From an uncultured archaeon (GTDB lineage: Archaea; Iainarchaeota; Iainarchaeia; Iainarchaeales; 1-14-0-10-31-34): a stretch of DNA of 64,000 bases. The notes under the pieces were generated by a model. It saw only the letters and a program-made list of their open reading frames with translations. It was not told where the DNA came from and searched no databases. Positions 14 to 39,525 of this stretch are shown piece by piece. Within the stretch, counting starts at the first letter, position 1. The number at the start of each line of letters is the position of its first letter. A program made the translations under genes and the position numbers. The stretch lies in NCBI GenBank assembly GCA_964608675.1, contig CAZSOZ010000003.1, positions 1 to 64,000 on the forward strand. Direction: 5' to 3'.

Positions 14-3000
14 TTATTTAATGCATTTCTCTTGTATTTCTTTTGATTCTTTTATTGAATCAAGTGAATCATCTACTTTTTCAGGGTTCCAGAAAAAGAA
101 AGCATAAGCTGAATTGTCTCCTCCGCCTACACATACGTCTTCTGATTTAACTAAATCAAATATTTTTTGCAGGGAAGTTATTTCAGTACTTGAAACCCCG
201 TTTAATGGAACAAATGCATTCAAGCTTGAATCTTGTTCTATTGAAGCTGAATCATTTGGAACAGTTATTATTGTTTTATTGCTTGCGCTAATTAATTCTA
301 TTCTTGAATCTGATTCAAGCGGAGTAAATAATAGTGTTTCAAGCCAGAATTTTCCTGTTTTAATTGGATTATTCCATACCCATCCGTAAGCATAAGCTTT
401 GCTTCCTGATGTAATTACTCCTCCTTCTGCTTCTTTGCTTAATCCATACACGTCAAATGTTTCTGAATACTTTAATGAACTTTTGTCTTCAAAGTCTTTG
501 CAGTTTGCATTTAATCCAGTCCATTTTGTTAGTCCCTGGCTTCCTGTCTTTTGAGGCTGTCCGTCAACTGTAACTGCATAAAACACGTATTCGTTTTCTT
601 GTGCGCTTTCGTTTGTTCTTGTCATTTCAAGAAGTACAGGAGTAGGTTTTGAAGGAGTGTAAATTAATAAAGTTGAATTGCTTGTTCTTTGGAATTCCAT
701 TATTTTTCCTCTTTGATCTATGTTTGTTTTTTTGAAGTCTGTTTCATAATAAGTTTTTAGTGTTTGTATTGGCACTGCAACAGGAATTGGAATTGTTTTA
801 ATTGCTCTGTCTGTGTCGTTGATTTTGATTTCTGTTCCCATAATATTTTCGTAGTCTATTCCGTAGTCAATTCTTCCGTTTTCAGAATTAATTCCTATTT
901 CTCCGTCAAACGGCAGATAATACAACGGCGAAGTAGGCTGAGCTGACTTTAATTTATTTAAATGAATTATTATTTTTGCGTTTGGAGTGTTTCCTTCAAA
1001 TAAATTCCATGTCTGGTTTTCGTAATTTATTTCTATGTCAACTTTGTATAATCCTGGAGACATAAGAGGCTGGTTTGGCGCTCCATCATAATCAAAGTCA
1101 AACAAATCTTGGTTTTTAAAGTATTCTCCTATTCCTGTTTGTTGTCCTTCTTCATAATAATAAGTTGGGGCATCAAAGAATGAAATGTTTACTGCATAAT
1201 CGTGGAAGTCTTCCTGAAAGTCTTTTGAGTAACCATCTTTCATTAAATATGACCTAAAACTAATTAAATCTGTTATTTTTTGTTTTGATGCAATTGGAGT
1301 TCCTTCTGCTTCTGCTTTTTGCATTAATTCTGATAAATCCATAGTTGAACAGTTTTCAGTGCATTCAATTGATTCTGATTCAAGCAAGTCAGTTAATTCA
1401 TTTATTTTTTTCAGTAATTCAATTGAAAACTGTGTGGCATCACAGTAAATATAGTTTTCGTTTTCTATATCGCATGCATCTTTGTCTATTTGGCTCCATC
1501 TCCAGTCTAATTTTATTTTTGGCAGAGCTTGTGCTCCTGTTTGTCCTGTCATTTCTCCAAGCCTGCATGATTCAAATCCTAACGGTCCTGGAAGAATGTT
1601 TTCATCGTAATCAAATGAATTAAACTGAAGCCTGTGATATTGATTAATTTCATTTCTTTCGCTTGTTTTTTCTTTTAATGGTTTTTCAAAATCATAGTCT
1701 GTTCCTCCAAATAATTTTTTAAAGAAAGTTTTGTTTTCATTAAAGTAATCTGAATCATATTTTTTTTCCCAGAATTTTTCTGTTGATTCTGTTTTTAGGA
1801 TTTTCATTATTGGAGTGTTTTCGTTTTCTTGTATTATTGAGTTTTCGTTTTTGAATGTTAAATCCCAGCAGTCAATTGTTTCTCCTGTAAATGAATTAAA
1901 GCATGAAAAAGGTCCTTCTGTTATTAAAGTGATTTCTGTGTCTTCTACTTCAATTTTTTCTGTTGTATATTTTATTCCATCCAATAATTTTGTGTTCATT
2001 AAAACAATGTCTTCTGCTGTAGTGTTAATTTGTATTTCGTCTGCACCAAAATAATTAATTAAAGTTGATGCAGCAAAAGTCAAGCCGAACGCTCCGAATG
2101 GATTAATGCTTCCGAAAATGCTTGGAAGAAGGTTTCCTAATCCAAGTAATTTTCCTATATCTCCAAGGCCTCCTATTAAGAGTCCGGTAGGCTGTGCCAA
2201 TACAGCCAAAGTTACGCTTCCTTTAGGTGTTCCATCATCGTTTAAGTCTCCATCATCGTTTAAGTCTTGTTCTTTATTTTGTCCTTGGAATGCTATGGAA
2301 CCCCCGAATGCAAGTATTGCCGGCAGAAAGGCTTTTCTCATTGCCAGACTCCAATCCTGTGTGTCAACTGTAATTTCAATCGGTTTTTCTGAACAATAAT
2401 TATATAATTGCGCTGTATCATATCCGTCATATAATTCGTTTGGGTCATCATAAATGTCAAATTCATATCTGCTTAATTCAATGCACGAATCTTCAAAGAC
2501 TGTTGCATAAACGTTTTCTAATTCTGTTTTTGTCTGCAGTGCGTTTCCTTTTGCTTGAATTTTAATTACAAATCTTCCTGAATATTCTCCTTTTGTGTCA
2601 ACTGTAATTTCTTTGTTTGCCTGTGAACCTAAACTGAATCTTTCCACATTGGTTTTTAGTTCTGAATCCAAAGTAAAGTCCACTGAATTTCCGCATCCAA
2701 GGGTTTCAATTTTAAATGAAGCAGTTTCACCTTTTTTTATGTTTAATTCAGTTGGAGTGATTTCAATACAGTCCTCTAAGTTAATTATTTTTATTTTTGT
2801 GTTAATTGAATCTGAAAGGAATTCGTCTTTTCCGTCTAATTCATTTCTTGCTCTTATTTCTATTTCTGCTTGAGCGTTTCCGTTTACTCCTCCGTTGGGT
2901 TCAAATGAAAGAACTGCTGTTGCTTTTTTGTTTGGAAGAATGTCAACAAGTTTTTTGTAGTAAGCTGATCTTAATTCAACCGGATTGTCTTCTAAAGTCA

Positions 3001-6609: not shown

Positions 6610-9600
6610 TTAATTTATTTCCTTCATTAATTTTGTTTTATTCCATTCAAGACTGAATTCGGTTTCGTTTGTTTCAAAACAGACATTTTCTGATTTAATG
6701 TCTGTAATCCATTTTTTAATGCTTGTCTTGCTGTTAATGCTTGGTTCTATTTCTGAACTAAATGTTGTTGTTTCAGGCAGACTGTATTCTTCTGCAGTTC
6801 CTTCATAATCAAACGCATATCCTTTCATTTCTGTTATTCCTTTATTGCAGTGTTTTGCAAAAGTGTACGCCCAGTTAACCGGAACAAAACTTAAAACTTT
6901 TTGTGTTTCTTCTGCACCAGAAGAAAAAATTACTCCAAATCTTTCTGACTTGCATTCTGAAGTATTGTTTAATTGGCTTTCTTTTTGTTTTGAGTCTTTT
7001 TTTTCTGAAGGAATCCATTCAAACAAATAATTCAATTCTTTTTCGTGTCCTGCGCTTAATCCTATTCTTTTGTCTTCGTCTTCTTTTGCTCCTTTAATTA
7101 AATCATAAAAAACTCCTTTTTGTCCTGCAGAAGCAAGCCCTGCTTTTAATCCTATTGCTTTGGATGGAGTGAATTCAAATTCTGTTTCTGAAATATAAAT
7201 TATTCCTGCATTTCTTGTTTCAGCAAACTTTTCTTTTTTTTCTGTGTCAGTTAATTTTTTGAATGCAGTGTTTACTCCTGATTTATTTTCTTTTAAATTT
7301 ATTTCTGATGTAAGATAAATGTCATTCACACTTGAATTTAATCCATATTCTGTTCCGTATCCTTCTCTTTGAGTGAATTCGTTTACGCCTGTTTTTCCGT
7401 CAAACGGAATTTTAAACAAATAGTTTTCTGCATAAAAGGATCCAAGTTTTTCTTCCAAATTTAATTCTGTTTCAGTGTTTTTTCTTTTGTCTGCCCAGCT
7501 GTAATTCAAGACAATTTTATGTTTTCCTGATTCAAAGCTTTTATTGGGTTTTTTTGTCTTGAATTCCCATTCCTTAAAATTATGTTCTTTTGATTCAGGG
7601 TATTCTGATTCAAAGTCTTCTTTGAAGTCGTCTGTTAATCCATCTGCTTTCAAGTAAACTTCAAATTCAATGTTTTCATTATAGAATTCTTCAAGCGAAC
7701 TTACTTCAGAGATTCTTGTTTTTCCTTCTTTCATTATTTTTGTTTTTTCTTCTTCTGAAATTTCTTTTATGTTTCTTATTCCAACTTTGAATTCAATGTT
7801 TTCTTGCAGGTTTTTCATGAATGAAATATCAATTCCTGTTGTTCCTGTTGTTTTGTTTTTTACTTTGTTTATTTCGCATTCTTCTGCCTTTTCATTTAAT
7901 TTAATGCATGCTTTTAGTTTGTTTCTGAATGCTTTGTATTCATTAAAAGTAATTGCATATTTGGTTGTGCTTCTTTCTATTAAGTCTCCTCCGATATCTA
8001 TGAATTTTTCTTTGTCTATTTTGCTTGAATCAATTTCTCCTATAATTGATTCTTCGTTTAATTCAGAATTATTTTCTATTTCTGTTATTATGTCGTCAAC
8101 TAATTCATTAACTGTTTTTGCGTTTCCTGAAAGATTTCCTTCAAGCCATTCTGCAATCAAATTAATGTTAGTTAAATTTCCGGTTAATTCATTTGAATTA
8201 AATTTTTTTCCTGCAATAATTGAATTGTTTTTGTTTACAAAAAAAACAAATTCTTTTTCTGTTATATCGTCTTTTATTTTTGTCTGGTTAATTAAAAACC
8301 TGAACAAATTCTTTGAATCTTTTACGTCTTCTTCGCAGTATCCTTGGCATAAATCATCCAACTCAATTGTCTTTAATTCATTTATTCTTTCTGCTTTCTT
8401 TGTTAATTCAATTCCTAATTGTGTTGAATCACAGTAAGTTTTTCCTGTATCGCATTCTTCTGCTGAAATATTATCCCAGTCCCAATCCAATTTAATTTTA
8501 TCAAAACCATATTTTTTGAATGCTGTTTCTCCTGTGAATCCTCCTTGTTCGCATGCCTTCATTTCAGCTGGAGTTTCTTCCGGAACCAAGTATTCTGCTA
8601 TTTCTTTTATTTGATCTTCAGTTAATCCATCGCAAATTTCTTTCAGCAATAAGATTATCAGCCTGATTTTTTCTTTTCTGTCTTTTGAGTCATCATCAGT
8701 TATTTCTTTTATTTTTTCTCCTGCATCTTCTCCTTCTTTTGTTTTTGCTTTGCATTCTTCCTGTTCTGGAGTCAACGGCTTTTCAGTGCATTCATTAAAT
8801 CCTTCAATGTCTAAACATATTTCATATGGAATTGAAACAGTTCGTGTTTCTGCTGGATTAGCTCTTGAAAGCCTTAAATAAAGCGTGTTTTCTATTTTGC
8901 CTGGATTGCATGTCATGTTTCTTTTGTCAACATTAACTTTTATTTGGTCTCCGTTTTCAACTGAAAACAAAAGAATTATCCCTGAATCCAATTCAATTTT
9001 ATTGTTTATTATTCTTGAAATCCTGTCTGTGTCTCCGCAAAATTGCTTGCTTTTCTTTATTACTGTCTGTGAATCAATTTTAAGTATTCCGTTTTCAAAA
9101 ACTGCATCTTCAAAGCATCCTTTTTCATTTGTTCCGTTTTTAATTGGTTTAATAAAAGACAATGCTCCTTCTTCAATGCATTGCTGATGGGCTGTTTCAG
9201 GATTTCCAAAGTTAATTATGTCTTGTCCTGCTAAACCCCATAAATCTTCAATAATAATATCAAACGGAATTATTTCCTGTGTTCCTGTTCTATTATAAAA
9301 TGTAACCGGAAGCCTTTCTTCTGCTTCAACTGCATAATATAATCCAGTTAATTTTATTCTTAAGTTTGCTAATTCAATTAATGGATTGTCTGCATCAGGA
9401 AGATTTACTTGTTCAGGTCTGTAAGCAAGATTTTTTCTCATTCTGAATTTTAGTTCCTGAATTATTTTTCCGTCTTGGCCGGGCCTGTTAATTAACTGAA
9501 TGATTTCAATTGAATCAATTATTCCTGAATTTCCTAATTTCTTCTGCCCTTGTTCGTAATCAAAAGGAAAACCATAATTTACTGCCCCGCTTAAATCTCT

Positions 9601-12600
9601 TGGAATTGAATTATAATTTAATACGACTCCTTGTTCATAACAAGTATTCCAAACAGTTCCTTCAACAGGCTTTTGTATTATGTCGTTGAAAGTAAAAACT
9701 CTTTTGCTTAAGCTGATGCAGTCATAATAATTTCTTAAAAACTCTGATTCAACTAATACATTATATTTTCTTATTTCTGCAGGAGAATCAGTTGAACTCT
9801 TATGTTTTGCTCTTACAATTAAAGAGTATTGGCCTACAAACATTGTTGGCGTTACTTCAATTGTTTTTGTTCCTCCTTCTTCTAAAATTACAGTTGAATC
9901 TGAAACAGAAATTTCGGGTGCGCCCTCTAATTCAATTTGAACTTCTGCAGGACAGTCATTCCTTATTTCAATTGTTCCTTTTCCTGGTGAATTAAATCCA
10001 AACTGGTAATTTAATGCTGGATTGAATGCAGTTGGATTAGTGTATTGTCCCATATGATAAGTGTGAGGCCATTGCTGGCTTCTCCAGTCTCCTGCTGCAA
10101 CCACATTTTTGTTGTTGAAAACGCTTCCAGGGGAAGCATTTGGATCATAAGGATAATCATAAAAAGGAAAATTCCTGTTTAAAGTAGTTTGAGTATTAGG
10201 ATTAAATAAATAAGGCAAAGTGTTTTGCGGACTCTGTGCAAAGTATTGATTCATATGCCCCCAGCCTTGATTATAGTAATTCATTTGTATTCTCATTTGA
10301 GTTGAAGAAGGCTGTATTCTTAGGCATTCACTTAACTCGCTTATTTGAACTTTTACTTCTATTTTGTCTTTAAGTATTTCTTCTCCTGATTCAGTTGGAT
10401 TAACTGCTTCAAAATAAATTACTGCTGTACTGCTTCCTAATGGAATGTCATCAGGAGAAATCCTTAAAGTCAGGTTTTCTTCTTCTGTATGCGGATTAAA
10501 TGTTTCCGCCAAAACCTTAAATGAATTATTTAAATTAACTGCTTTTGATTCTTCTATTAATGGATTTAATGTGAATTCTCCTATTGCGTTTTCTTTCCAT
10601 ACAACTTTTGCTTTTACATTCTTTAATGCAATGTTTTCTCCTTCCACTGTGCAGGAATTCCTTAAAACAAATTTGTTTTCTCTTGCGTTTCCTTCAGTTA
10701 AAACATTCCATTCATTTGGAAGAACTGCAAAGCAGTCAGGTGAATCAACTTCTCCTCCTAATCCAATTGTTATTTCAATTGGAATGCTTGCAGTCCATTG
10801 TTTTCCTGCTTCAAGGTTTTCAAGCACAATAATTATTTCTCCTTTTATAGAAGTTATTTGAACGGCTTTTCTTCCTTTTTCTGTTAAACCTAAATTAACT
10901 AAAATTTGTTCTTCGCTTCCAATCAACAAATTTGTTTCAGTGAAATCTGAAATTTCTGCGTCAACTAATCCTTTAAAGGAATCAGTTAATTCAACTCCGA
11001 TTATTGTTAACGGCATTTCAGTAATGTTTTTCAGAGTAATATCTCTTGTTATTCTTCTTTCAGGTTTTTTTGCATTAAAAGTTTCTTTTATTTCTGTTGG
11101 CATAAAAGAAACAATGTTTTCTTTTACTTGAATTATTTTTTCTGTTGGATTGAATCCTGCTTTTTCTGCTGTAATAATTATTTCGGTTCCTGCATTTAAT
11201 GGCTCAAAAGAATAAGCATAAATCCCTTTTGAATCTGTTTTTCCGATTGAAATTATTTCGTTGTCTTTTTTTATTTTAACTGTTGCTTCAATTAAATCAT
11301 TTTCTTGTTTCTCAGCTAAATGTACTAATAAATTGTTTTGAATAAACGGCAGTAAATTTTTTGGGGAAGTTTCTATTTTCATGTTTTTTGCCATTGCAAC
11401 TTCTGCTCTGATTGGATTAAACAATATTTTTTCTTTTCCTAAATTCAGGCTTTCTCCAAACAAACTGAAATCAATTCTGTTTGTTCCCTCGCTTTTTGTT
11501 GTAAAATTAATTTTGCCTGAAATTTTTTGTCCTTTGGAAATAGTTCTTGTTGGAATAATTATTTTTCCTTCAGCGTTTTTTTGGATTCCTTCTATTTCAT
11601 ATGAATTTAATTCCAGTCCTTTTCCTTCTATTGCCAGTTCGCTGTTTGAATAACTTTTTTCGTTTATGCTGATTATATTGAATTCTATTTCATAATTGCT
11701 TGAAATTTTTGCCGGAAACGAATCAACAATATTTGTTCTTGTTGCATTTGCTATATCTCTTACTGTAAAGCTTGTGCAAAAGTTTTCTGAACACAAACTT
11801 GATGCCCCAATTTTTAATGGTTCATGCCTTGTTTCTGCATACAATGCCTGTTTTGCTGTAGTGCTTTCTGTTTCCTGTAATTCTTCGTCGAAAGGATCTC
11901 TTTGGTAGCCTGAATCAATTACCCATCCTCTGTAAGCTATTTCTAAAGGAGAACCGCTCAATAAATCTTTTACTTGAATTACTGTTTCAATTTCATATAC
12001 TCCTTCTTGAACGTCATTAAAAATCACATTTGTCCATTTAGCGTTTCCTGAAGTTAAATGGCTTGAATCAATTCCATAACCTGTATTGGGATTAAAGGTT
12101 GTTCCTTTAATTATTTTTGCGTTTGCAGCACTAATTTTTTTAATATACAAATCGTCTTTTTCCATTGTATTATTCTGGTTTTTTGTGTCTTCTCCTGTTC
12201 TTATATGAATTCCTGCTTCATTTGAATAAACTCCTTTTGGAATCATTAATTTAAATACTGCTTTGTATGTTTTTCCCTGATTGACTGTTTCGTCTTCCAG
12301 AGTTTCTCCGTTTAATTTTAGTTCCTCTAATTTTACTGCAAAAGAATTAATTGAATCCTCTAATACAATTGTTTTTTCTTCTGTTCCGTCAAACATTTGA
12401 ATTGGTGCACTAATGTAATTTGAGTGCCCTGATTCATTCACTTCCAAAAAAACTTTTTTGTCTGCTCTTATATTAAAGCTTTTTTTGCCTTCAGTGTCAG
12501 TGGAATATCTTGCATATTCTTTTCCTGTAAAATAATCAATTACTTTTACTGTTGCTGACTGAATTGCCTGTTTTTCTTTATCCAATATAATTACATCCAA

Positions 12601-24094: not shown

Positions 24095-24149
24095 TAAATT
24101 TAATTTAATCAGCAAAGTATTAAATATTCTTTTTTTTATAATTTTTTGC

Positions 24150-25145
24150 ATGGCTGGAGTAATTGATTCATTTGCATTCATTCTAAAAAAAAGCTTTGAC
24201 TTAAAGTTATGGCTTTATTTTCTGCTTATTTTAATTATTGCAGTTGTTTCTTTTGGAATACTCTTTTTTGTTTTTCTTTTTATTGGATTTCTTTTATTTT
24301 TAATTCTGCAGTTTTCGCTTGCAGGATTTTTGTTTTATTTTATTTTTTTTATTTTGTTTTTGGTTTCAATGTTTGCTTTGGGTTCAGCGGTAAATGGAGT
24401 TTTATTGAATTTTGCAAGAGATTACATTCATTCAGGCAAAATCGATTTAGGGCTGGCTTTCAATAAAACTAAACCAAGAATTTTCACTGCAGTTAAAGTT
24501 GAGGTAATTGTCGGAATTTTCTTTTTTGCAGTTTTTTTATTATTTTTTCTTCCGTTTATTTTTTCTTTAATTGAATTAATTAATACTGCTTCTCTTAGAT
24601 TTCTGATTGCGCCTAATTCATCTCAAATGCTTTCCCTGTTTTTTTCTGTTTTAGGTTCTCTTTTGCTGGGTTTTCTTTTGTATGGAATTTTCAGCATTAT
24701 TGTTGCTCCGTTCAGCATTCTTTACAGGCAGATTCCTTTTTTTGAATCCCTTTCAGCGGTTGATTCAATTAAAAGAGCAGTTTTTCTTGCAAGAAAAAAT
24801 TATTTTTCTAATTTAGGTTTTGCGGTTCTGGCTTTCATTATTACAGGTGTTTTTACTTTTGTTTACATGATTTTTTCTTTTGTTTTAGCTTTAACTAATG
24901 CAAGTCAGATTATATTTCTGATAATACTTGCAATTTTTTTAAGAATAATTTTAGAGTTTGCTTTTGTTTTGTGGACTACGGTTTTTAATTATCTGGTTTA
25001 TGTTAAAGTTTATGAATTCAATTCAACTGAACAAAAATTTTTTCAGCCGAAAACTTTTCTAAAAACAAAACCTAAAACAAAATCAAAATCATTAAAGCCA
25101 AAGCCTTCAACAAAAACCAGAGTCAAGCCCGGCACAAAAAAATAA
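24150..25145 (+). CDS. Multi-pass membrane protein with Lys-rich C-terminal tail
   Basis: Several hydrophobic helices; likely start ATG 24150 (MAGVIDS); sits directly upstream of the ATPase. Confidence 0.7.
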   Translation: MAGVIDSFAFILKKSFDLKLWLYFLLILIIAVVSFGILFFVFLFIGFLLFLILQFSLAGFLFYFIFFILFLVSMFALGSAVNGVLLNFARDYIHSGKIDLGLAFNKTKPRIFTAVKVEVIVGIFFFAVFLLFFLPFIFSLIELINTASLRFLIAPNSSQMLSLFFSVLGSLLLGFLLYGIFSIIVAPFSILYRQIPFFESLSAVDSIKRAVFLARKNYFSNLGFAVLAFIITGVFTFVYMIFSFVLALTNASQIIFLIILAIFLRIILEFAFVLWTTVFNYLVYVKVYEFNSTEQKFFQPKTFLKTKPKTKSKSLKPKPSTKTRVKPGTKK

Positions 25146-27484: not shown

Positions 27485-29817
27485 TGAGAAGAACCCAGAA
27501 AAAAGAAAAAGAAGTTTATGAAACCAGAAAAGTTTCTCCTGGAGAATTATATAAGGGAATTTCTTATTCAGGAACAAAATTTGGTGAAGAAACAAAATTA
27601 TTAAAAAAAAAAGAGCATTGGTTTGTTGTTTTCTGCAAAAAATTTTTTAGTTCATTTCCTTCTCTTGGAAAAGGAGCAAAATATTCAAAAAAATACAGGG
27701 AAGCCATTGATTTCCTTGGATGGAATCTTTCTCCTGAAGAATTTTCTGCTTCAATTAAACTGACAATGATTGCTTCAATTATTTTTGCTTTTATTTTGTT
27801 TGTTTTAGCAATTTCTTTTGGGGCAGTTGAAGCAATAACAGAGTTTACCGGAAGCTCTTTGCTTGCTTATTTTTATCTTTTTGTTCCTTTAATTTTGATT
27901 GTTTATTTTGCAGTAAATTTTGTTCAAAAGTTTCCGTTGAATGAAGCAAAAGTTGAACAAGTTCGTGCATTAACTTTTGTTCCTGAAATCATGGGGTACA
28001 TGATTATGTCCATGAAGCTTGTTCCTAATTTAGAGAAAGCAGTTGAGTTTGCTGCAACACACGGAAGAGGAAAAATTGCAGAAGACCTTAAAAAAGTTAT
28101 TTGGAATGTTGAACTTGGCATTCATAAATCTTTAAGCGAAGGCTTGGATGAAATGGCTTACAATTGGGGAAAATTTTCTGATGAATTTAAGTCTTCTTTG
28201 ATGATGATTCGTGCTTCGGTTTTGGAAACCAGTGAAGCAAAACGCTATCAGATTCTTGACAAAACAATGGAGCAAACCCTTGAAAGCATTAAAACCAAAA
28301 TGGAGCAGTATGCAAGAGAATTATCTCAGCCTACAGTTGTATTGTTTTATTTAGGTGTTTTACTGCCTTTAATTTTAATTATTGTTTTGCCTGTTGGCTC
28401 TGCTTTTTCCGGACAAGGTTTAGCGAGGCCGGAAATCCTTGTTTTAATTTATAATATTTTAATTCCTGGCGCAACATTTGTTTTTGCTTTGAATGTTTTA
28501 AGAAACAGGCCTCCAACTTATGAGCCTCCGAAAATTCCTGATGGCCATCCTTCTCTTCCAAAAAAATATCAAATGAAATTAGGAAAAAATTTTGTTGATT
28601 TAAGGTTTGTAATGCTTGCAGTTTTAATTGCTGGAGCAGGCTTGACTTGGTTTTTTCATTCCAACGGAATAGTGTTTGAATTTGATCAAGAAAAGCTTAC
28701 TATTATTCCTCCTGACAGAACAAAAGAATTTGTTTTGGAAAGAGTTAACCGGCCTGAAAACTGGTATAACGAAGATGGTCCTTTTGTCCAGCAGTTGATT
28801 TCAAGAGGAGTTGAACTTCAAGCCGCACAAAAAACTGTTGCTGCAGAAAAAGCAATGTTTTTTATGAAACCTGAAAATGATATTACTCCATACAATTTAA
28901 TTTTTGGTTCGCTTTTAACTTTTGCTTTAATGTTTTTCATTTATTTTAATTTCACTTCAATTTACAAAAGAAAAGTTCAGGAAGAAACAATGGAAATGGA
29001 ATCAGAATTTAAAGACTCCCTTTATGTTATTGCTTCCCGAATGGGAGAAAATAAGCCGGTTGAAGAATCTTTAAGGCATGCACAAAATTTTCTGCCTGAT
29101 TATGTTATTTCCCAAAAGCTTTTCGGTAAAACCGTTGACAACATTAATTTATTAGGCATGCCTTTGGAGAACGCTGTTTTTGACCCGAATTATGGTGCAT
29201 TAAAACATAATCCTTCTAATATAATCCGCAGTTCAATGAAATTGCTGGTTGATTCAGTTAAAATGGGAGTTGAAGTTTCTGCCAGAACTTTAATGTCTCT
29301 TTCACTTCAGCTTAAAAACTCTGAAAAAGTAAACAAAACTCTTTCAATTTTAGTTAAAGAAATTACGTCCACTATGAAAACAATGGCAGTGTTTATTGCA
29401 CCGGTTGTTTTGGGTATCACGACTGCTTTGCAGAAAGTTGTAATGATTTCTATGGGTTCAATTATTTCTGAAGGATCCCTTGATTCTGTTTCAGGAAACA
29501 TAAGCAACGTGGATTTAGCCGGAGCAAATTTGGGTTCAGGGTTATCCAGCCAGCTGAGTGCTTTTTCTTCTTCTATTTCAAGTTTTAAAATGGATCCCGA
29601 AGTTTTTGCTTCGCTTGTTTCTCCTGCTCAATTCACTTTTATTATTGCTTTGTATGTAATTGAAATAGTAATTATTTTAACTTACTTTACTTCCAAACTG
29701 GAAGAAGATAATAATGTTCTGGCTACTTTGAGGATTGCAAAAGCTTTGCCGGTTGCTTTGACTGTTTTTGTTCTGGCAATCATTGTTTCAAATTCAGTTG
29801 TTGGAGGCTTCATGTAA
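27484..29817 (+). CDS. Type IV pilus/T2SS membrane platform protein (TadB/TadC/FlaJ-like, two fused T2SSF-type domains)
   Basis: Translationally coupled to the ATPase (TAATG overlap); two cytoplasmic domains (PNLEKAV..GKIAEDL; GENKPVEESL) each followed by TM bundles. Confidence 0.85.
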   Translation: MRRTQKKEKEVYETRKVSPGELYKGISYSGTKFGEETKLLKKKEHWFVVFCKKFFSSFPSLGKGAKYSKKYREAIDFLGWNLSPEEFSASIKLTMIASIIFAFILFVLAISFGAVEAITEFTGSSLLAYFYLFVPLILIVYFAVNFVQKFPLNEAKVEQVRALTFVPEIMGYMIMSMKLVPNLEKAVEFAATHGRGKIAEDLKKVIWNVELGIHKSLSEGLDEMAYNWGKFSDEFKSSLMMIRASVLETSEAKRYQILDKTMEQTLESIKTKMEQYARELSQPTVVLFYLGVLLPLILIIVLPVGSAFSGQGLARPEILVLIYNILIPGATFVFALNVLRNRPPTYEPPKIPDGHPSLPKKYQMKLGKNFVDLRFVMLAVLIAGAGLTWFFHSNGIVFEFDQEKLTIIPPDRTKEFVLERVNRPENWYNEDGPFVQQLISRGVELQAAQKTVAAEKAMFFMKPENDITPYNLIFGSLLTFALMFFIYFNFTSIYKRKVQEETMEMESEFKDSLYVIASRMGENKPVEESLRHAQNFLPDYVISQKLFGKTVDNINLLGMPLENAVFDPNYGALKHNPSNIIRSSMKLLVDSVKMGVEVSARTLMSLSLQLKNSEKVNKTLSILVKEITSTMKTMAVFIAPVVLGITTALQKVVMISMGSIISEGSLDSVSGNISNVDLAGANLGSGLSSQLSAFSSSISSFKMDPEVFASLVSPAQFTFIIALYVIEIVIILTYFTSKLEEDNNVLATLRIAKALPVALTVFVLAIIVSNSVVGGFM

Positions 29818-31072: not shown

Positions 31073-31080
31073 TTTAAATA
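31073..31080 (+). promoter_or_regulatory. TATA box for the 49-aa mini-pilin and downstream pilins (probably a leaderless transcript)
   Basis: TTTAAATA about 24 bp upstream of ATG 31104. Confidence 0.5.
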
Positions 31081-31103
31081 CCAGTTTAGCCTTATTTTTT
31101 GTT

Positions 31104-31253
31104 ATGGAATTATTAAAGGAAAATAAAGCGCAAAGCGAATGGAATTCTGTTTACATGCTGATAGTTTTGATTATTGCTGTACTGTTGTTGATTACTGTTA
31201 TTAAGCCGATGTTTGAAAAAAGCCAGCAGATAAACAAGCCGATAGGAGGCTGA
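31104..31253 (+). CDS. 49-aa mini-pilin with class III signal peptide (absent from the ORF track)
   Basis: Manual translation: MELLKENKA|QSEWNSVYMLIVLIIAVLLLITVIKPMFEKSQQINKPIGG*. Its 3' end supplies the GGAGG SD for the next gene. Confidence 0.8.
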   Translation: MELLKENKAQSEWNSVYMLIVLIIAVLLLITVIKPMFEKSQQINKPIGG

Positions 31254-31257
31254 TTTT

Positions 31258-31806: not shown

Positions 31807-31816
31807 GGTAATTTGA

Positions 31817-33656: not shown

Positions 33657-34457
33657 TTATTTTTTGGTTACGTGTCCGCAGTGAGGACACAAATATTTTG
33701 TTTTGTTTCCTTCTTTGTGTTTTATTTTTGTGCATTTGTCGCAGTAAGCGTTTCCGCATTTGGAGCAAAAAATCAGTTCATTAAATTGCTGTCCGCAGTT
33801 AATGCATTTTCCTTTTTCTTTTTTTTCTGTTTCTTTTTGTGATTCAATGGTTTTTTTTTGAATTCCTTTTTTTTCTTCACTTAAATCCAAATCTAATTTA
33901 AATCCTTCAATTTCTTTTTTTTTCAGTTTCCCTGTTTTTGCTGGTTTTGTTTCTCCAAGCAAATCTTTGATGTTTGTTCCTTTCATTTCCGGAAACTCAA
34001 TTTCATTTTTTTCTTCTGTTTTTTCTTTTCTTTTTCTTTCTGTTTCTTTTTTTGTTTCTTCTTTTTTGTTTTCTTTTTTTTCTGTTTCTGTTTTTTTAGG
34101 TTCTTCTTTGATTTCTTTTCTTTCTTTTAGTCTTTCCATTCTTCTTTTTTTCCATAAAGGAATTTCTTCTTTTCCTTCTTTTTTTCCTGCAATTTTTTTT
34201 GATATTTCTTCTGCTTTCTTTTTTTTCTTGTTCTTTTTTTCCTGTTTTTTTTGTTTTTTTTCTTGTTCTTTTCTTTTCATTTGTTCAAATATTGTTTCAG
34301 CTATTTTTTCCGGTTTCTCTTTTTGTATTTTAAGTTTTTCATTAAAATCTTTTTGTTTTTTTTTGGAAAGACTTTTAAGATTTTCAGATAACTTTTTTTC
34401 TTTTATATTTTTTTTCCTGTGAAATCTTTTAAGCCTTCGGGGTATTTTTTCTGCCAT
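33657..34457 (-). CDS. Lys/Glu-rich low-complexity protein with C-terminal 8-Cys zinc-finger
   Basis: CINC..CSKC..CDKC..CPHC at the C-terminus; highly charged N-terminal ~210 aa. Confidence 0.7.
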   Translation of the reverse strand: MAEKIPRRLKRFHRKKNIKEKKLSENLKSLSKKKQKDFNEKLKIQKEKPEKIAETIFEQMKRKEQEKKQKKQEKKNKKKKKAEEISKKIAGKKEGKEEIPLWKKRRMERLKERKEIKEEPKKTETEKKENKKEETKKETERKRKEKTEEKNEIEFPEMKGTNIKDLLGETKPAKTGKLKKKEIEGFKLDLDLSEEKKGIQKKTIESQKETEKKEKGKCINCGQQFNELIFCSKCGNAYCDKCTKIKHKEGNKTKYLCPHCGHVTKK

Positions 34458-34511: not shown

Positions 34512-35048
34512 ATGCCTAATAATTTTTTTATTGACTTGCTGGTATCTGTTTTTGATTTCCTTAGAGGAGCCTTTCTGCTTTCGGTTGTTATTTTTTTTCT
34601 TTTTTTAATCGGCTATTTTTTTTCCAGAAAAATTTTGGAAAAAAAATTTAATTTAAGCTGGATGCAGAAAACTTTTTTGAGCAGTTTTTTTGTTTTTGTT
34701 TTGCTTTTACTGGTTTTTTTTGTTTGGCCTGTAATTGAAGCTTTTTTGGCTGTTGATTTAGGTGTTGTCCCTGAACCTTTGAAGATGACTTTGCCTGAAT
34801 TTTTTTATTTAATTGTCTCTCTTTTAGTTAAGCTTATTGTCGCTTCTTTTATTTTTTCTTTGCTTGTTTTGCCTTTGGCTTTTTTTGGGGTTTTTGTTTT
34901 TGATTTTATTTCCAAAAGGTTTAACTGGAATACGTTCATTAATTTCTTTTTAGCATGTTTTGCTTCAACCATTTTAGGGTATTTTTTGGTTTTGTTTTTG
35001 TTTCCATGGATTATTGCAGGAGCATTGTATTTGGTGTATTTTGGGTGA
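34512..35048 (+). CDS. Integral membrane protein (about 4-5 TM), co-transcribed with the 1490-aa protein
   Basis: Hydrophobic ORF ending 4 bp before the next start. Confidence 0.7.
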   Translation: MPNNFFIDLLVSVFDFLRGAFLLSVVIFFLFLIGYFFSRKILEKKFNLSWMQKTFLSSFFVFVLLLLVFFVWPVIEAFLAVDLGVVPEPLKMTLPEFFYLIVSLLVKLIVASFIFSLLVLPLAFFGVFVFDFISKRFNWNTFINFFLACFASTILGYFLVLFLFPWIIAGALYLVYFG

Positions 35049-35052: not shown

Positions 35053-38000
35053 ATGAATAAAGTAAACGTTTTTTGGTCGGCATTTATTATTTCTTTGCTG
35101 TTGAATGTTCCGTTGTTTTATGCTGTAAGTTCAAATGAATTTTATTTTCAGGATGAATCTGAATTAATTGAAGAACCAGTTAACACTTTTTCTTGTTCTC
35201 AGAGTTCTCTTTCTCCTGAAGAAATTCAGGCTTTTCAGGAAAACATTCTTGAAACAGGTTTTTCGGGAGAAAATCTTTCTGCAGGCTCACAGCCTTTAAA
35301 GGATCGTGAAACACTTGAAAATAATACTGCTTTGCTTGTTTCTCCTGATTCAAATATTGCACAAAAAGTTGAGCTTCCTAATCAGGAGATTTCAGCTGAA
35401 GAAGTTTCTTATCTTTTAAATAATCGTTATGATGGAGCTTATTCTTTTGGTTTGCTTTTGAATGATTCTCTTAGATTAGGCCAGTGCAGGGATAATTCAG
35501 CTGACTGTCCTTTAATGGGAAACAATTTAACTTATAGAACTGATGGAGAGGGATTTAAAGAAGATTTTGTTTCTGTTTGGGGGGATTTAAAGGGAGTGGT
35601 TAATGACTGGTTTGGAAGCAAAAAAGATGTTCCTGGCGAACAGCTTCCTGAAGAAACAAAACAAAGGATTAAGGATTATTTTGAAGCTGGAGCTGAAGAA
35701 GATGTTGAAGGAACAATTGTTAAAAAAGTTCCCGGCGAATACATGTCTAACAGTGTTTTAACTGATGAATTCACTGCTTCTATGGGAACAACATGCAGGG
35801 ATTCTTCTTGTACTATTTCTTTGTATTCTTTTTTTGATAAGCATTTCAATCAATGGTTTTCTTCTAATATGGTGGTTCAGACTGCAGGTCCTACTTTGTT
35901 GTTTGGAGCAAAAAAATTGTTTGGCTTGAGTGCAAGAAGAGGTTTGTTTGGAGCCCAGTTTATTGATGTTGAAAACACTAATTTAGTTAAGAATATGAGA
36001 ATGAAAATTTGGGGTCCTGATTCTTTTTTTTCAGAAAAACTTGGTTCAAGGATTATTCAGCAAAAAAACAAGTATGATGGTTTTCCAGAGTTCTATAAAG
36101 AGTTTGTTCAGAATTCTCTTTATGAAAAAGGAATGGCTGACAGCGACGACACTTCAAGGATTCTTGCTAAATTTCTTGACCCTAAAACTTCTCCTTTGTA
36201 TACTAATGGAACGATTTCAATTGAAAAAAAGAAGGCTTTTGTGCAGTTAGCAAAAGACCTTAAAAGATATACTACTACTGCGGATTGGTATGGTCAGGCA
36301 GCAAAAAGGGAAATGGATGACATAATTGAAGTTTTTGGAAGAGAGTCTCCTCAGGGAATTGAAGCAAGAAGATTATATGGAGCAAAAATGTCCAGATTGT
36401 ATGGAAAGTTTGATGATGATTTGGATGCAGATTTCCCTAATATGATTGCAATGCAGGAAAGGCTTGGATTATGGAATAAAGGATTAAAGAATGCCAGAAC
36501 AGGAAACGTTCAAACTATTGCTGCTGACAGCGATGTATGGAACAACATAATGAAATGGTTTGGTGGACACGGAAAATATGATTTTTCTTTAAGGGATGTA
36601 ACTGATTTTGAGCCCGGAACTTTTGCTAATGCTGCAAGGCACTGGCATGTAAGAGGAGATGATTTAGTTTATTATAAACTTAAACCTACTTTGACTTCTG
36701 ATGTTATTCCAAGAGGAGACTTAAAGGCATGGGTTGCAAAATCAAAGACTGATGATCTTTATGCTAATATTCCTGGTCATGGATTTATTGAAATAAGGGA
36801 TAATACAAAAGATTTTATTTTAGAGCAGGTTCCCGGGGACGTAAGAATTTATAAAGGTTCTTGGTCTGAAGCTGGAGCTCTTAAACCTGAACAAATGGGT
36901 GACCTTCTTGCAGATAAACCGACTAAAAGGCTTCAGAAGGCTTCTGCTATGAATGAACAGTTATGGGGGGCTTTAAGAGAAAAAAATTGGGCTGAAAGAA
37001 AATACTTTAATGCTATGGATAAAATTTTTGCTAATGAAGAAAGGCTGGCTAATGCTTATTTTAGGAGTGTTGGAGGAGCAGCAAAATATACTGTGGTTCC
37101 TTATATTTACTGGCAGGCAAAAAGAGGTTTTGGTGTTGATGAATTAAGTGCTTATATGCTTCCTGAAACATGGAGGACAGTGCATTATTCTTCTGGAGAA
37201 GACAAATTGTATGACGATGCTTTTATTGATTTTTTTGCTAATTCAGGTTCTGATGACGGAGACCTGTTTATTAGGGTAATTGACAATCTTCCATGGAAAT
37301 ATGTTTTGAATACTTTGTCTGAAAAATTTAATCTTGTTAAACAACAGTATGACCGTTATACTAAACCTAATGGAGGGCTTAGAACTGAAGTGGGAAACAT
37401 TGCAGTTTATTCTAATACTTCTGAGAACTGTATTGGATGTGGCATTACTTTGAATTCTTCTTCTGCAAATGATTTTCTTGCTTTATTTAAGTCTGGAAGC
37501 AGGACTTCTTCTATTGTTTTAGAGGATACTCCGAAAGACGAGCAAAAGAATGGTGCAGTATTAATTAATTATGCTCATCATCTTGATTTGCAGGGAAAAA
37601 CTCCTGAAGGAGTCCCTGAAAAAATTAATTTAAGTGAATCAGTTTCTGAAAATAATACTTGTCAGGATGCAATAGAGGAAGCAGGTTATGGAGTTGGATT
37701 TGCAAACAAACATGGAATTAATCCTGGTTTTTATTTGGCTTCAGCTGAAGCTGCTTCTTATCTTATTTTTGGAATGGGAGGAGCAATTGTTACTGCTGTC
37801 CAGCAGTTTGTTGTTGCATCAAAATTGCAGGGTTGTGTTGATTCAAGTGAAGGTTATTATACTCATTTTTTTGTTCCTGCTTTTGAAGAAGAAGAACCTC
37901 CTAAAGAAAACACTGTTGAGTATTCAACTCAAAAGGTTTCTAATTTAATTGATGATGCTTCTTCTCAATTAGAATCTTTTTTTACTGGAACAGGAACTTT

Positions 38001-39525
38001 AACTCAGGATGCAGTTGATAATGTTAAAAGAGAACTTGATTCTCTTTCAAGAGGAGCAAAGAGCTCTGATTTAGTTCAGGCAACTTATGATACTTATGGT
38101 TTTTCCAGAGGCATGATGTCTGGAATAAGATTGTTTTATTTTTGGGTTGCTGGAGGCACAAACATTGAGCCTGCAGAATATAAAACTAAAGGAAAAACTG
38201 TAATTGAAGGAGTAAACGGGCAGACTGCTGTTTCAGACAACGAAAAAGGAAATTTGGTTGTTGATGGAAAAGAAGTGTTGAATTCTGAAGATCATGTTAG
38301 AATGGCTTCAACTGATTTAGCAATTCCTGCGACTGCTTATCCTAATGATTTGAGTATGACAAGATTTTCAGGGAATCCTTCTCAATTGGTTTTTGAATTA
38401 AAGATGTCTCCTTTGGGGGATTCAGCTGACATTGTTGTTCAAGATAAAGATTTATTGGATTGTATTAAGGAAGGAGTTTTAAAGCAGACAGGCTTGTCTT
38501 TGAATTCAGCTAATTTAAGTGAAGCTTTTGGTAAATTCAAAGAATTAAAGACTTCAACTCATTCAAGTGTTTTTGTGCAGGATGGAAAAATTGTTGCTGA
38601 AGGAATTCCAAGAAAAACTGCTTTTAATGAACCTGGTTTGGAGGTTTATGGAGACAGAAGCGTTAAATTGTTGAATTCCAAAGACGAGGATCCTGACATA
38701 GGAAAATTAACTGCAATGTATTTTGATAACGGTTATTTTATTTATAAAGAATCCACTAATGAATTTATTTTTTGGTTAAGACATCATGAAAAAGGAAAAC
38801 TAGAACAAGAAGATGTTTTTGGATTAAATGTTTCTCCTAAAATGCAGACTAATCCTGTCACTGGATGTGAAGAGTATGTGTTTGATATGAAAGTTTTAGG
38901 AGACCCTGAGTCTCCTGCTAAATCAGAGAAAGCAAGATTGTTTAATGAGTCTTTGAATAAAATGGGTCCTTTTAGTACATTTAAAACAGATAAAAAAACT
39001 TATGTTTTTTATGAAGATGAAGACTGTAAAATTCATTTAAGAATTATTGATAATGAAACAGGAAAAATTGAGTATGATGAATTAATTGATTCTTTGGATT
39101 CAACTGCTGATGGATTTAATGTAAAAACTGCTGACGGACAAAGTCATGACTTTGGTTTTTCAACTGAAAACGGAAGGCCTTTCCTTGACTATAACGGAAT
39201 AAAAGAATTATTGAGAACTGTTTCAGGACAAAATGGAAGCATGTGGTATGACCCAGAAAAAGGTTTATGGTATGCAGAAAACGCTCAGCTGTTGCCTTTG
39301 CTTGATTTGTTTAGAACTGAAGGTCTTAAGTTAACAGTTGAAGATAATGTTGCAAAAGGAGTTCCTGGAGCCAACACTATGAACATTAATTTGAATGACA
39401 AGACTGCAAACAATCCTTTTAATTTGCCTTCTTTGCCTGAATCTCTTTTGGGTTTAAGCTTGTTTTTTGTTTCTTTGATTGCATGCATGTTTTTGATTCA
39501 GTTTTCAGTTAAAAAGAAAAAGTAA
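35053..39525 (+). CDS. Large secreted protein (1490 aa) with signal peptide and C-terminal LPSLPE-TM-KKKK anchor
   Basis: N-terminal signal peptide, paired Cys, internal hydrophobic segments, C-terminal NLPSLPESLLGLSLFFVSLIACMFLIQFSVKKKK. Confidence 0.85.
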   Translation: MNKVNVFWSAFIISLLLNVPLFYAVSSNEFYFQDESELIEEPVNTFSCSQSSLSPEEIQAFQENILETGFSGENLSAGSQPLKDRETLENNTALLVSPDSNIAQKVELPNQEISAEEVSYLLNNRYDGAYSFGLLLNDSLRLGQCRDNSADCPLMGNNLTYRTDGEGFKEDFVSVWGDLKGVVNDWFGSKKDVPGEQLPEETKQRIKDYFEAGAEEDVEGTIVKKVPGEYMSNSVLTDEFTASMGTTCRDSSCTISLYSFFDKHFNQWFSSNMVVQTAGPTLLFGAKKLFGLSARRGLFGAQFIDVENTNLVKNMRMKIWGPDSFFSEKLGSRIIQQKNKYDGFPEFYKEFVQNSLYEKGMADSDDTSRILAKFLDPKTSPLYTNGTISIEKKKAFVQLAKDLKRYTTTADWYGQAAKREMDDIIEVFGRESPQGIEARRLYGAKMSRLYGKFDDDLDADFPNMIAMQERLGLWNKGLKNARTGNVQTIAADSDVWNNIMKWFGGHGKYDFSLRDVTDFEPGTFANAARHWHVRGDDLVYYKLKPTLTSDVIPRGDLKAWVAKSKTDDLYANIPGHGFIEIRDNTKDFILEQVPGDVRIYKGSWSEAGALKPEQMGDLLADKPTKRLQKASAMNEQLWGALREKNWAERKYFNAMDKIFANEERLANAYFRSVGGAAKYTVVPYIYWQAKRGFGVDELSAYMLPETWRTVHYSSGEDKLYDDAFIDFFANSGSDDGDLFIRVIDNLPWKYVLNTLSEKFNLVKQQYDRYTKPNGGLRTEVGNIAVYSNTSENCIGCGITLNSSSANDFLALFKSGSRTSSIVLEDTPKDEQKNGAVLINYAHHLDLQGKTPEGVPEKINLSESVSENNTCQDAIEEAGYGVGFANKHGINPGFYLASAEAASYLIFGMGGAIVTAVQQFVVASKLQGCVDSSEGYYTHFFVPAFEEEEPPKENTVEYSTQKVSNLIDDASSQLESFFTGTGTLTQDAVDNVKRELDSLSRGAKSSDLVQATYDTYGFSRGMMSGIRLFYFWVAGGTNIEPAEYKTKGKTVIEGVNGQTAVSDNEKGNLVVDGKEVLNSEDHVRMASTDLAIPATAYPNDLSMTRFSGNPSQLVFELKMSPLGDSADIVVQDKDLLDCIKEGVLKQTGLSLNSANLSEAFGKFKELKTSTHSSVFVQDGKIVAEGIPRKTAFNEPGLEVYGDRSVKLLNSKDEDPDIGKLTAMYFDNGYFIYKESTNEFIFWLRHHEKGKLEQEDVFGLNVSPKMQTNPVTGCEEYVFDMKVLGDPESPAKSEKARLFNESLNKMGPFSTFKTDKKTYVFYEDEDCKIHLRIIDNETGKIEYDELIDSLDSTADGFNVKTADGQSHDFGFSTENGRPFLDYNGIKELLRTVSGQNGSMWYDPEKGLWYAENAQLLPLLDLFRTEGLKLTVEDNVAKGVPGANTMNINLNDKTANNPFNLPSLPESLLGLSLFFVSLIACMFLIQFSVKKKK

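Follow-up and report, generated by a model that had tools for sequence, protein, structure and literature searches.

The 64-kb window analysed here is the start of contig C3 (CAZSOZ010000003.1) in the metagenome-assembled genome (MAG) of a member of the Iainarchaeota (Diapherotrites, DPANN); the genome comprises 1.207 Mb on 53 contigs, is 94% complete and has a GC content of about 31%. Positions 14-39525 of the window hold a locus in which three paralogous giants and a prepilin-like protein of 597 amino acids (aa), named pil597 here, face a sortase, an ATPase, a platform protein, six small prepilin-like genes and a 1490-aa protein (Table 1). The two gene groups diverge at ~24.1 kb. On the minus strand, the order of transcription is giant C, pil597, giant B and giant A, with the sortase gene upstream on the same strand. 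The plus strand carries, in order, a 352-aa membrane protein, the ATPase, the TadC-like platform protein, the six prepilin-like genes, a 178-aa membrane protein and the 1490-aa protein. All the open reading frames (ORFs) listed in an earlier note on this DNA, which was made from the letters alone, were located where it had placed them; in a genome of 31% GC, the giant ORFs of 2,200-2,500 codons are not chance products. Judged by its sequence, the locus belongs with the gene sets of type IV filaments (T4F), as an undescribed variant that occurs phylum-wide.

The earlier note had described a locus of ~40 kb. That span is correct but incomplete: the locus is truncated at the contig start and very probably extends into contig C5 with a fourth giant. 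This 2397-aa protein (C5:62280-69616) bears the same N-terminal motif as the giants of the window, and is orthologous (54% identity over 1127 aa) to the giant adjoining giant A in the related genome G005. Its start codon lies 143 bp from the ~60-base poly-T run that ends C5, and the first bases of the window are 15 T. Because of these two T runs and the position of the ortholog next to giant A in G005, the fourth giant most likely abuts the window start, which gives a locus of four giants and ~47 kb; the assembly probably broke in the homopolymer between C5 and the window.

A divergent ATPase and a putative platform

The motor had been annotated as a "VirB11/TadA ATPase". Membership in the ATPase family was confirmed, whereas the VirB11 type was not, the protein being of the FlaI/TadA/archaeal GspE type instead. 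It scores 61.9 bits against Pfam T2SSE (PF00437, cut-off 24.9), which places it in the PilB/GspE/FlaI family, and its sequence contains Walker A (GSRGSGKTS) and GEVR motifs. Its scores against the named types all fall short: archaellum FlaI (NF058587) gives 131.8 bits for a cut-off of 550, bindosome BasE (NF053672) 73.1 for 1000, GspE 28-32 for 617-630, ComGA 43.6 for 300 and PilB 24.8 for 675, and TadA (123.8 bits) and VirB11 (67.6 bits) are both far below their NCBIfam cut-offs. With FlaI, BasE and GspE all out of reach, the locus fits no named archaeal or bacterial system tested, as had been suspected.

The closest relatives of solved structure are Archaeoglobus GspE (2oap; 113.5 bits, residues 295-682), CpaF (91 bits) and FlaI (70 bits). 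Residues 1-294 of the ATPase matched nothing that was searched. Across 29 orthologs, this N-domain has a mean column identity of 68%, with C26, C29, C41, R42 and H44 nearly invariant, and we infer that it holds a zinc site. Seven T2SSE ATPases, including the one at the locus, are encoded in the genome, and the others have their own TadC and pilins. Most divergent among the seven are the locus ATPase and a paralog from contig C4 (39% identity), with FlaI scores of 131.8 and 122.7 bits versus 221-296 bits for the other five.

The C4 paralog belongs to a divergent set of its own (C4:84484-95878, locus L113), in which a 557-aa ATPase lacking the N-domain is accompanied by a TadC-like protein of 626 aa, by six small membrane-start proteins rich in Cys and by two pilin-like proteins, one of 834 aa with 31 Cys and the other of 636 aa with 40 Cys; no motif-bearing giant was found in this set. 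C4-like ATPases (39-44% identity) were seen in just 3 of 40 relatives. Separately, an intein interrupts the ATPase ortholog in several relatives (G001 contig C3 locus L040, G002, G015, G033 and G039), producing split frames of 1259-1361 aa with the insertion near residue 490 or 550. G001 is the sole confirmed case, by Pfam matches to Intein_splicing (67.7 bits) and a LAGLIDADG endonuclease (61.3 bits).

A T4F platform protein normally holds two T2SSF (PilC/GspF/TadC/FlaJ) domains. In the locus protein, residues 181-303 score 23.8-25.1 bits against Pfam T2SSF (cut-off 25.2) and 29 bits in the genome search. The second half gave no Pfam or PDB match, the PDB search was empty for both halves, and neither BLAST nor hhalign of ortholog profiles detected similarity between the halves; a weak cross-half match to the C4 paralog was seen (expectation value, E, 7e-4). 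Because T2SSF reaches the first half only, at threshold, and the two halves are not detectably alike, the "double TadC" proposed before is unproven: the N-terminal half touches T2SSF, and a second TadC unit did not emerge.

Seven prepilin-like proteins

Seven proteins of the locus begin with a short basic N-terminus, Gly at -1, Gln or Phe at +1 and a hydrophobic helix, and these class III-like starts are kept in orthologs found in 8-10 of the compared genomes. With a slash at the putative cleavage site, the conserved starts are KG/QxFE, KG/QxFS and G/QEEAPF in prepilin-like proteins 1-3, MLG/FTLSK, KG/FLGPIGDDLPSLIPL and KG/QAAxTDA in proteins 4-6, and KG/FTLFTAL in pil597 (here MNKKG/FTLFTAL). 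The class III-like start supports the earlier description of pil597 as pilin-like. The count of eight such proteins had to be lowered: of the seven tandem genes listed, six have a class III-like N-terminus (29893-33656), and the total is seven because the remaining tandem candidate (34512-35048) is a polytopic membrane protein. The set is indeed Cys-rich, with 3-9 Cys in each small protein and 16 in pil597.

The pil597 gene invariably lies between giant C and giant B, and the N-terminus of its product matches ComGF weakly (19.2 bits, cut-off 80). Prepilin peptidases are encoded outside the locus, by two Peptidase_A24 genes on contig C1 (54.3 and 52.2 bits, cut-off 26.5).

Giant proteins with a common N-terminal motif

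The paralogy of the three giants was borne out: A and B share 28% identity over 1349 aa (E 5e-90), B and C 26% over 836 aa (E 3e-36), and A and C 25% over 704 aa (E 2e-18). Giants A and B also have a C-terminal Cys-containing region in common. Pfam recognised Ig-like modules only, namely CarboxypepD_reg (up to 87 bits), Big_1, bMG3 and SpaA, and a PDB sequence search with giant C returned no match.

The giants are also membrane-anchored, as had been claimed. Each starts with a cytoplasmic motif of ~45 residues, approximately LK-x-x-Y-x-x-x-E-(D/E)-K-(Y/W/F)-Y-x-x-x-D-x-L-D-x-x-G-I-P-V-Y-x-x-I-D-P-I-E-x-x-x-I-P-S-F-P, followed by one strong transmembrane (TM) helix with a Kyte-Doolittle hydropathy (KD) of 2.7-3.0 in the three window giants and 2.4-3.5 across the giants compared. 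The motif is conserved in 24 of 24 giants aligned, and hydropathy revealed no C-terminal anchor in any giant. An N-terminal motif with a single TM helix and no C-terminal anchor points to an N-in topology with a huge outside part. A prepilin-like cleavage site at the N-terminus of the giants was considered and rejected: (K/R)G precedes the IP(S/F)F motif only in giantC, and the residue at the would-be cleavage position is mostly N or S in giantB (G in 1 of 10) and hydrophobic in giantA. A complex prediction pairing the ATPase N-domain (residues 1-300, 29 alignment rows) with the N-terminal peptide of a giant (48 aa, 24 rows) scored 0.00 and, run without controls, carries no weight on binding either way.

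A profile of the motif (24 sequences, 48 columns), searched against 1.84 billion cluster representatives, matched 1049 of them at E<=0.001, of which 517 reached E<=1e-10. All but six of the top 150 matches have the motif beginning at residue 12 or earlier; of the six, five start at residues 24-63 and one is an internal-repeat protein. Seventy-nine of these 150 proteins are at least 1,500 aa long; 58 have fewer than 500 aa and are most likely ORFs cut by contig ends. Named motif-bearing proteins are merely called "hypothetical" or "carboxypeptidase regulatory-like domain-containing protein", and the clusters are labelled only "Micrarchaeota archaeon", "archaeon" or "Diapherotrites". Two 3-kb contigs are filed under a bacterial MAG, probably through mis-binning.

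An AlphaFold2 (AF2) model of the C-terminal 905 residues of giant A (1290-2194; 29 alignment rows) reached a predicted local distance difference test score (pLDDT) of 83 and a predicted TM-score (pTM) of 0.60. It shows two Ig-like domains of the PapD/ASH/MSP kind (Z up to 9.9, root mean square deviation 1.9 A, 79 residues aligned; the matches are generic), and the second of them bears a long helical hairpin tipped by a low-confidence, Gly-rich hydrophobic loop (model residues 149-208, protein residues 1438-1497). The last 525 residues are confidently folded. A wide fold search returned its generic PapD/ASH/MSP Ig-like matches on model residues 1-375 only and barely sampled residues 380-905; Foldseek gave TM-scores of <=0.09 (query-length normalised) for this model.

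The C-terminal ~480 aa of giant C contain Gly/Ala-rich hydrophobic segments. Gly/Ala/Cys-rich segments (KD 1.4-1.9) near residues 2000-2560 recur in 11 of 11 members of the giantC family and in 3 of 5 of the giantA family, and no consistent internal hydrophobic segment was found in the giantB family. Of the "membrane-active inserts" suggested before, moderately hydrophobic Gly-rich segments are thus present, though not consistently in giantB, and their membrane activity is conjecture. In G017 (locus L109) and G032 (locus L115), extra proteins of 2729 and 2521 aa lie between giant C and the sortase; they have an N-terminal TM helix, lack the motif of the giants and have no Pfam match.

Conservation and gene order across Iainarchaeota

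The ATPase was matched in 41 of 41 close genomes at E<=1e-20, and 39 of them contain a full-length or intein-split ortholog with 58-92% identity; the exceptions are G021, with paralog-level matches only, and G019, with a contig-end fragment. Of 201 genomes sampled from the phylum, 177 contain the ortholog at E<=1e-100, as do 56 of the 58 of high quality, with 50-92% identity among the matches listed. Giants occur in 40 of the 41 close genomes, the single miss being a 74%-complete genome, and they diverge much faster (25-59% identity) than the ATPase (58-92%).

The synteny comparison that the earlier note had called for did not refute the linkage of giants and ATPase. In 22 of 40 relatives, the ATPase and a giant share a contig and are no more than 40 kb apart. 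Twelve neighbourhoods of 36-50 kb each were fetched, and ten have the common order giantA-giantB-pil597-giantC-sortase-ATPase-TadC-pil1..6-Zn-ribbon-membrane protein-1490-aa protein; the two exceptions form the G009/G040 genus. The giants, ATPase and TadC have the same layout in G041, which belongs to another order, and gene order is kept across at least two orders and more than 30 families. In G020 (contig C4), ~20 kb of unrelated genes stand between giant C and the sortase (region coordinates 2.4-24 kb); with large ATPase/helicase-looking ORFs and a PIN-like small gene, this insert resembles a mobile or defence island.

G009 has the system in three separate pieces, each with its inner order kept. 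The first holds giantC-pil597-giantB-giantA and further giants, the second TadC-pil1..6, a 241-aa opposite-strand gene, the membrane protein and the 1490-aa homolog, and the third the ATPase alone. The 241-aa gene occupies the position of the zinc-ribbon gene and has no BLAST match to it. This 0.8-Mb family with a broken locus retains all three modules, with pil597 among the giants. Since the modules are dispersed over the chromosome in one family, tight linkage is not obligatory; that the parts work together is best argued by the retention of every piece in a 0.8-Mb genome and by the constant place of pil597 among the giants.

An archaeosortase and its likely substrate

The earlier note had placed an archaeosortase at the junction of the two gene groups and a large secreted protein at the far end, and both are found there. 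The sortase matches TIGR04178 (32.9 bits, cut-off 23) and PF09721 (27.4 bits, cut-off 25.7) and retains the Cys, Arg and His residues; its C(T/S)G, N..R and H(D/N/G/E) motifs are conserved in 11 orthologs. Translation probably starts at an internal Met, giving about 168 aa. Scores against the named archaeosortase subfamilies stay below their cut-offs, the best being XrtG (25.8 versus 102.75 bits), with ArtD at 17 versus 125.

The 1490-aa protein has an N-terminal signal peptide and ends in a TM helix plus KKKK. Eight of 9 orthologs end in the arrangement NLPSLPE, TM helix and basic tail, and the ninth is cut by the end of the fetched region; within this genome the NLPSLPE signal occurs in the 1490-aa protein alone. 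We know of no named CTERM class to which it can be assigned. The 1490-aa protein is likely the substrate of the archaeosortase of the locus, and the two may reasonably be considered a dedicated enzyme-substrate pair. The 1490-aa protein has no family match in Pfam or NCBIfam and no usable match in ESM Atlas, and a PDB search gave chance matches only, at E 0.05. Its AF2 model is poor (pLDDT 59), with helical bundles as the sole result of a fold search (Z up to 7.2); neither this search nor that with giant A demonstrates a new fold.

Six other secreted proteins of the genome end in (L/I/V/M)PE(T/I), a TM helix and a basic tail; they include C4:15248-18169, C5:50671-54526, C6:35198-37546, C4:54957-55982 and C2:74237-76930. 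A second archaeosortase-family gene lies on contig C1 (C1:327547-327807, 51.8 bits), and together they may constitute a second sorting system with its own signal.

Murein hydrolase domains in some lineages

Two of the nine giantC orthologs scanned with Pfam carry a murein hydrolase domain: that of G008 has an SLT lytic transglycosylase (residues 2551-2601, 45.6 bits, cut-off 21.3), and that of G022 a C-terminal Amidase_2 (100 bits) as well as a cupredoxin domain. Inside the locus of G023, a 1016-aa secreted protein combines Amidase_3 (117.6 bits) and PKD with a sub-threshold glucosaminidase match, and such a sub-threshold match was also obtained for an 821-aa neighbour protein in G022. SLT is present in 53 of the 201 sampled phylum genomes and in frames of at least 1,900 aa in 7 of the 201; in at least 3 of those 7 (G008, G018 and G024), such a frame lies on the ATPase contig. 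A phmmer search with single hydrolase domains against 150 motif-bearing proteins found the source protein alone and was too insensitive. The host- or neighbour-contact role suggested before gains some support from these domains, which sit on giant orthologs of other genomes.

The murein pathway requires four Mur ligases. One Mur-ligase-family gene was found in this genome, as in the control archaea, and a profile scan detected no Amidase_2 in it. Given this single gene, a murein wall of its own appears unlikely, and remodelling of the cell's own murein by the hydrolases was judged unlikely on the same ground. Elsewhere in the genome (C2:166704-170153), a 1149-aa secreted protein (1153-aa frame) carries SLT (58.4 bits) and is kept in 5 of 5 other genomes of the genus.

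Comparison with known systems

With the archaeal T4F systems (archaellum, Aap, Ups, Epd and bindosome), the locus shares a FlaI/TadA-family ATPase, a putative TadC/FlaJ-like platform and several Cys-bearing proteins with class III signal peptides, besides a prepilin peptidase encoded in the genome. It differs from them in that its ATPase misses every equivalog cut-off and has a 290-aa Cys3His N-domain, its 777-aa platform is barely recognisable, and three or four N-anchored giants of 2.2-2.5 kaa bearing a motif of their own are added, along with an archaeosortase and the 1490-aa protein as its likely substrate. The pseudopili of the bacterial type II secretion system (T2SS) and of Com consist of an ATPase, a platform, one major-like pilin and several minor pilins, including one large. 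The parts list of the locus (ATPase, putative platform, major-like and minor pilin-like subunits) resembles theirs, whereas the GspE, ComGA and ComGF scores are below the cut-offs and the giants are membrane-anchored rather than free cargo; an archaeon is not known to have an outer membrane or secretin. Archaeosortase systems such as ArtA with PGF-CTERM have in common with the locus the family signature, the Cys/Arg/His residues and a tripartite C-terminal signal, borne here by a large secreted protein encoded nearby. Unlike them, the locus enzyme is merely about 170-197 aa long and falls into no named subfamily.

No description of the locus was found in the literature on DPANN pili, Iainarchaeota, giant proteins and murein enzymes; supplementary tables may list some of its families. 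The available text of the archaeal T4F survey (Makarova, Koonin & Albers 2016, PMC4858521) contains no DPANN, archaeosortase or giant terms. In the available parts of Makarova, Wolf & Koonin 2019 (PMC6393860), DPANN loci with FlaI, TadC and dark-matter signal-peptide proteins are read as encoding divergent pilins, in a general statement and one figure example of a DPANN type IV pili island. That island resembles the present locus in its FlaI, TadC and signal-peptide proteins; unlike our description, those parts of the text mention no giants, N-terminal motif, sortase or phylum-wide synteny.

Giant DPANN proteins have been reported by Castelle et al. 2021 (PMC8204110) and Vigneron et al. 2022 (PMC9723730), whose available sections describe SLT proteins of up to 3,000 aa in Woesearchaeota/Pacearchaeota, propose that they bind or degrade bacterial walls and use the word "pili" 0 times. 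These transglycosylases are likewise giant and extracellular, and SLT also ends some Iainarchaeota giantC orthologs. They differ in belonging to other phyla, whereas here SLT is an occasional tip on a motif-defined family linked to a T4F motor. The SLT (GH23) domain of fam00969 of Castelle 2021 is absent from the four giants of this genome and present, at the level of the domain, in giantC of G008. A 2025 PLoS Biology paper on archaeal peptidoglycan hydrolases does not, in its accessible part, treat DPANN giants.

Other genes of the locus and the window

The 352-aa membrane protein is poorly conserved, with BLAST matches solely in G006 and G032 among the fetched neighbourhoods. The 266-aa zinc-ribbon-like protein is probably cytoplasmic; every match to Pfam zinc-finger families lies below its cut-off. 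Downstream of the locus, the window contains a second, ordinary-looking type IV pilus set (42292-45496), whose 471-aa ATPase scores 125.5 bits against T2SSE and whose TadC genes, two separate ones, score 50.5 and 40.9 bits. Further along (50440-53583), a secreted protein of 1047 aa that combines fibronectin type III with Ig-like domains is surrounded by a surface-glycan neighbourhood (46.9-63.3 kb) that includes a cis-prenyl diphosphate synthase, a geranylgeranyl reductase-like protein, an undecaprenyl-phosphate translocase-like protein and nucleotide-sugar enzyme genes.

Table 1. Genes of the locus, with positions in the 64-kb window. A slash marks the putative prepilin cleavage site.
Feature	Position	Strand	Remarks
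Giant A, 2194 aa	14..6598	-	N-terminal cytoplasmic motif, TM anchor, Ig-like (CarboxypepD_reg/Big_1) repeats
Giant B, 2501 aa, paralog of giant A	6610..14115	-	Same N-terminal motif and TM helix
597-aa prepilin-like protein (pil597)	14222..16015	-	KKG/FTLFTAL start, 16 Cys
Giant C, 2481 aa	16050..23495	-	Same motif, (K/R)G-IP ahead of TM helix
Mini exo/archaeosortase-family protein, 197-aa ORF	23588..24181	-	TIGR04178 and PF09721 matches
352-aa polytopic membrane protein, Lys/Pro-rich tail	24087..25145	+	No family match
759-aa T4F ATPase	25205..27484	+	Unique 290-aa N-terminal domain, then FlaI/TadA/GspE2-like core
777-aa TadC/FlaJ-like platform protein	27484..29817	+	Borderline T2SSF, N-terminal half only
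Prepilin-like 1, 168 aa	29893..30399	+	QKG/QSFEVF, 6 Cys
Prepilin-like 2, 179 aa	30459..30998	+	QKG/QEFSVF, 4 Cys
Prepilin-like 3, 182 aa	31258..31806	+	RG/QEEAPF, 9 Cys
Prepilin-like 4, 215 aa	31817..32464	+	MLG/FTLSK, 6 Cys
Prepilin-like 5, 166 aa	32446..32946	+	Conserved GPIGDDLPSLIPL and hydrophobic stretch, 3 Cys
Prepilin-like 6, 239 aa	32937..33656	+	RG/QAAITDA, 4 Cys
266-aa Lys/Glu-rich protein, C-terminal Cys-rich zinc-ribbon-like end	33657..34457	-	Position conserved
178-aa polytopic membrane protein	34512..35048	+	Always directly upstream of the 1490-aa gene
1490-aa secreted protein	35053..39525	+	N-terminal signal peptide; C-terminal NLPSLPE motif, TM helix, basic tail

Discussion

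We tentatively propose that the locus encodes a coupled cell-contact apparatus, in which a lineage-specific T4F machine is joined to giant surface proteins; this is our best explanation, held with some reserve. It builds on the gene inventory, the paralogy of the giants, the motifs, the synteny, the spread through the phylum and the hydrolase tips of some orthologs. On this basis, we consider the following mechanism plausible; in it, we infer every physical interaction, the docking of the motif, the adaptor role of pil597, the substrate and processing by the sortase, and the target cell. The T4F machine of Iainarchaeota would comprise an ATPase with a probably zinc-binding N-domain, a large TadC-like platform and seven prepilin-like subunits, whose processing enzyme would be one of the two prepilin peptidases with genes outside the locus. 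Three or four giants, genetically coupled to this machine, would each be held in the archaeal membrane by the N-terminal TM helix that follows the 45-residue cytoplasmic motif, and would project a long stalk of Ig-like domains with a variable tip. The pil597 protein would act as the adaptor that joins the giants to a short filament or pseudopilus, and the ATP-driven filament would position or tension them. The neighbouring mini-archaeosortase would probably anchor the 1490-aa protein to lipid or membrane via its NLPSLPE signal. The giants would then bind the envelope of neighbouring cells, most likely bacteria, and some lineages would cut it with murein hydrolases.

A bolder version of this mechanism makes the T4F motor a contact-dependent attack or feeding device against bacteria: a short pseudopilus, growing at the expense of ATP and capped by pil597, would push or tension giant fibres of 80-100 nm, docked by their N-terminal motif, while their tips cut murein and their Gly-rich hydrophobic hairpins enter the membrane of the prey. 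We regard this version as distinctly improbable. If true, it would make this T4F-based device the first predatory or parasitic nanomachine acting across domains to be described in DPANN archaea.

Several points weigh against a coupled contact apparatus. None of the results reveals contact of the motor or the pilins with the giants, and the earlier suggestion that a pseudopilus assembles or drives the giants found no support. The prepilin cleavage sites were assigned visually on alignments, the platform match is borderline, and the internal hydrophobic segments of the giants are weak (KD 1.4-1.9) compared with their N-terminal anchors (2.4-3.5). With six other T2SSE ATPases, pili as such are common in this genome. 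Three of 40 relatives have the ATPase clearly away from the giants: in G009 and G040, they are more than 350 kb apart on one contig, and in G027, no giant occurs along 46 kb of contig upstream of the ATPase. A further 15 of the 40 are undecidable, with contigs too short or one gene not found. The idea of a bacterial target rests on a minority of giants, because Pfam gave neither an SLT nor an amidase or glucosaminidase match for the four giants of this genome, and a hydrolase was found in 0 of 17 further motif-bearing giants, one of which has a C-terminal CAP domain. As to expression, the sequencing runs that hold the stretch are three DNA runs of one microbial-mat study (6% of words in one of them), with no RNA run.

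Some of these observations would be expected if the locus were a surface-gene island without mechanical coupling, that is, an ordinary adhesive pilus and independent adhesins or coat proteins that share a neighbourhood and perhaps regulation. Pili are generic in a genome whose seven T2SSE ATPases have TadC and pilins to go with them, the modules lie scattered in the 0.8-Mb family (G009) and in G027, and the giants evolve far faster than the ATPase. However, such an island leaves unexplained why the same gene order recurs in more than 30 families from at least two orders, why a prepilin-like protein, pil597, is embedded in the giant operon in every case observed, why the locus ATPase is unlike the five ordinary ones and has a unique conserved N-domain, and why all modules are kept even in 0.8-Mb genomes. 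We therefore hold an uncoupled island to be unlikely, though a serious contender. An envelope-assembly system comparable to the bindosome of Sulfolobus, in which a short pseudopilus organises the cell's own surface layer and the giants and the 1490-aa protein are wall components, is quite unlikely in our view. Murein hydrolase and CAP tips make little sense on a self-coat in an archaeon with one Mur-ligase gene, three or four fast-diverging paralogs suit interaction proteins better than one abundant lattice protein, and the BasE score of 73 bits is far from the cut-off of 1000. Yet a phylum-wide, probably single-copy system is what a housekeeping envelope function would look like, and most giants have Ig-like domains only. 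ArtA and the S-layer glycoprotein form an archaeosortase-substrate pair, which the sortase of the locus and its dedicated C-terminal signal resemble.

A pseudopilus for DNA uptake (Com-like) or protein secretion (T2SS-like), with the giants as unrelated cargo or neighbours, would account for one major-like pair and five minor-like pilins including a large one, which resemble GspG-K and ComGC-GG, for the weak ComGF match at the N-terminus of pil597, and for the Lys-rich zinc-ribbon protein in the locus. It is nevertheless very improbable: the ComGA, GspE and ComGF scores are far under their cut-offs, no ComEA/ComEC-like DNA-binding or translocation gene is present among the locus ORFs scanned, and the N-terminal anchor of the giants looks uncleaved.

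Iainarchaeota are not known to have a cultured member. A conserved locus of 40-47 kb takes up about 4% of a 1.2-Mb genome here. It is a concrete candidate for how Iainarchaeota touch their partners, and it hints at bacterial rather than archaeal ones. Moreover, the N-terminal motif of the giants, with ~1,000 clusters worldwide, and the N-domain of the ATPase provide two new sequence handles for metagenomes and enrichments.

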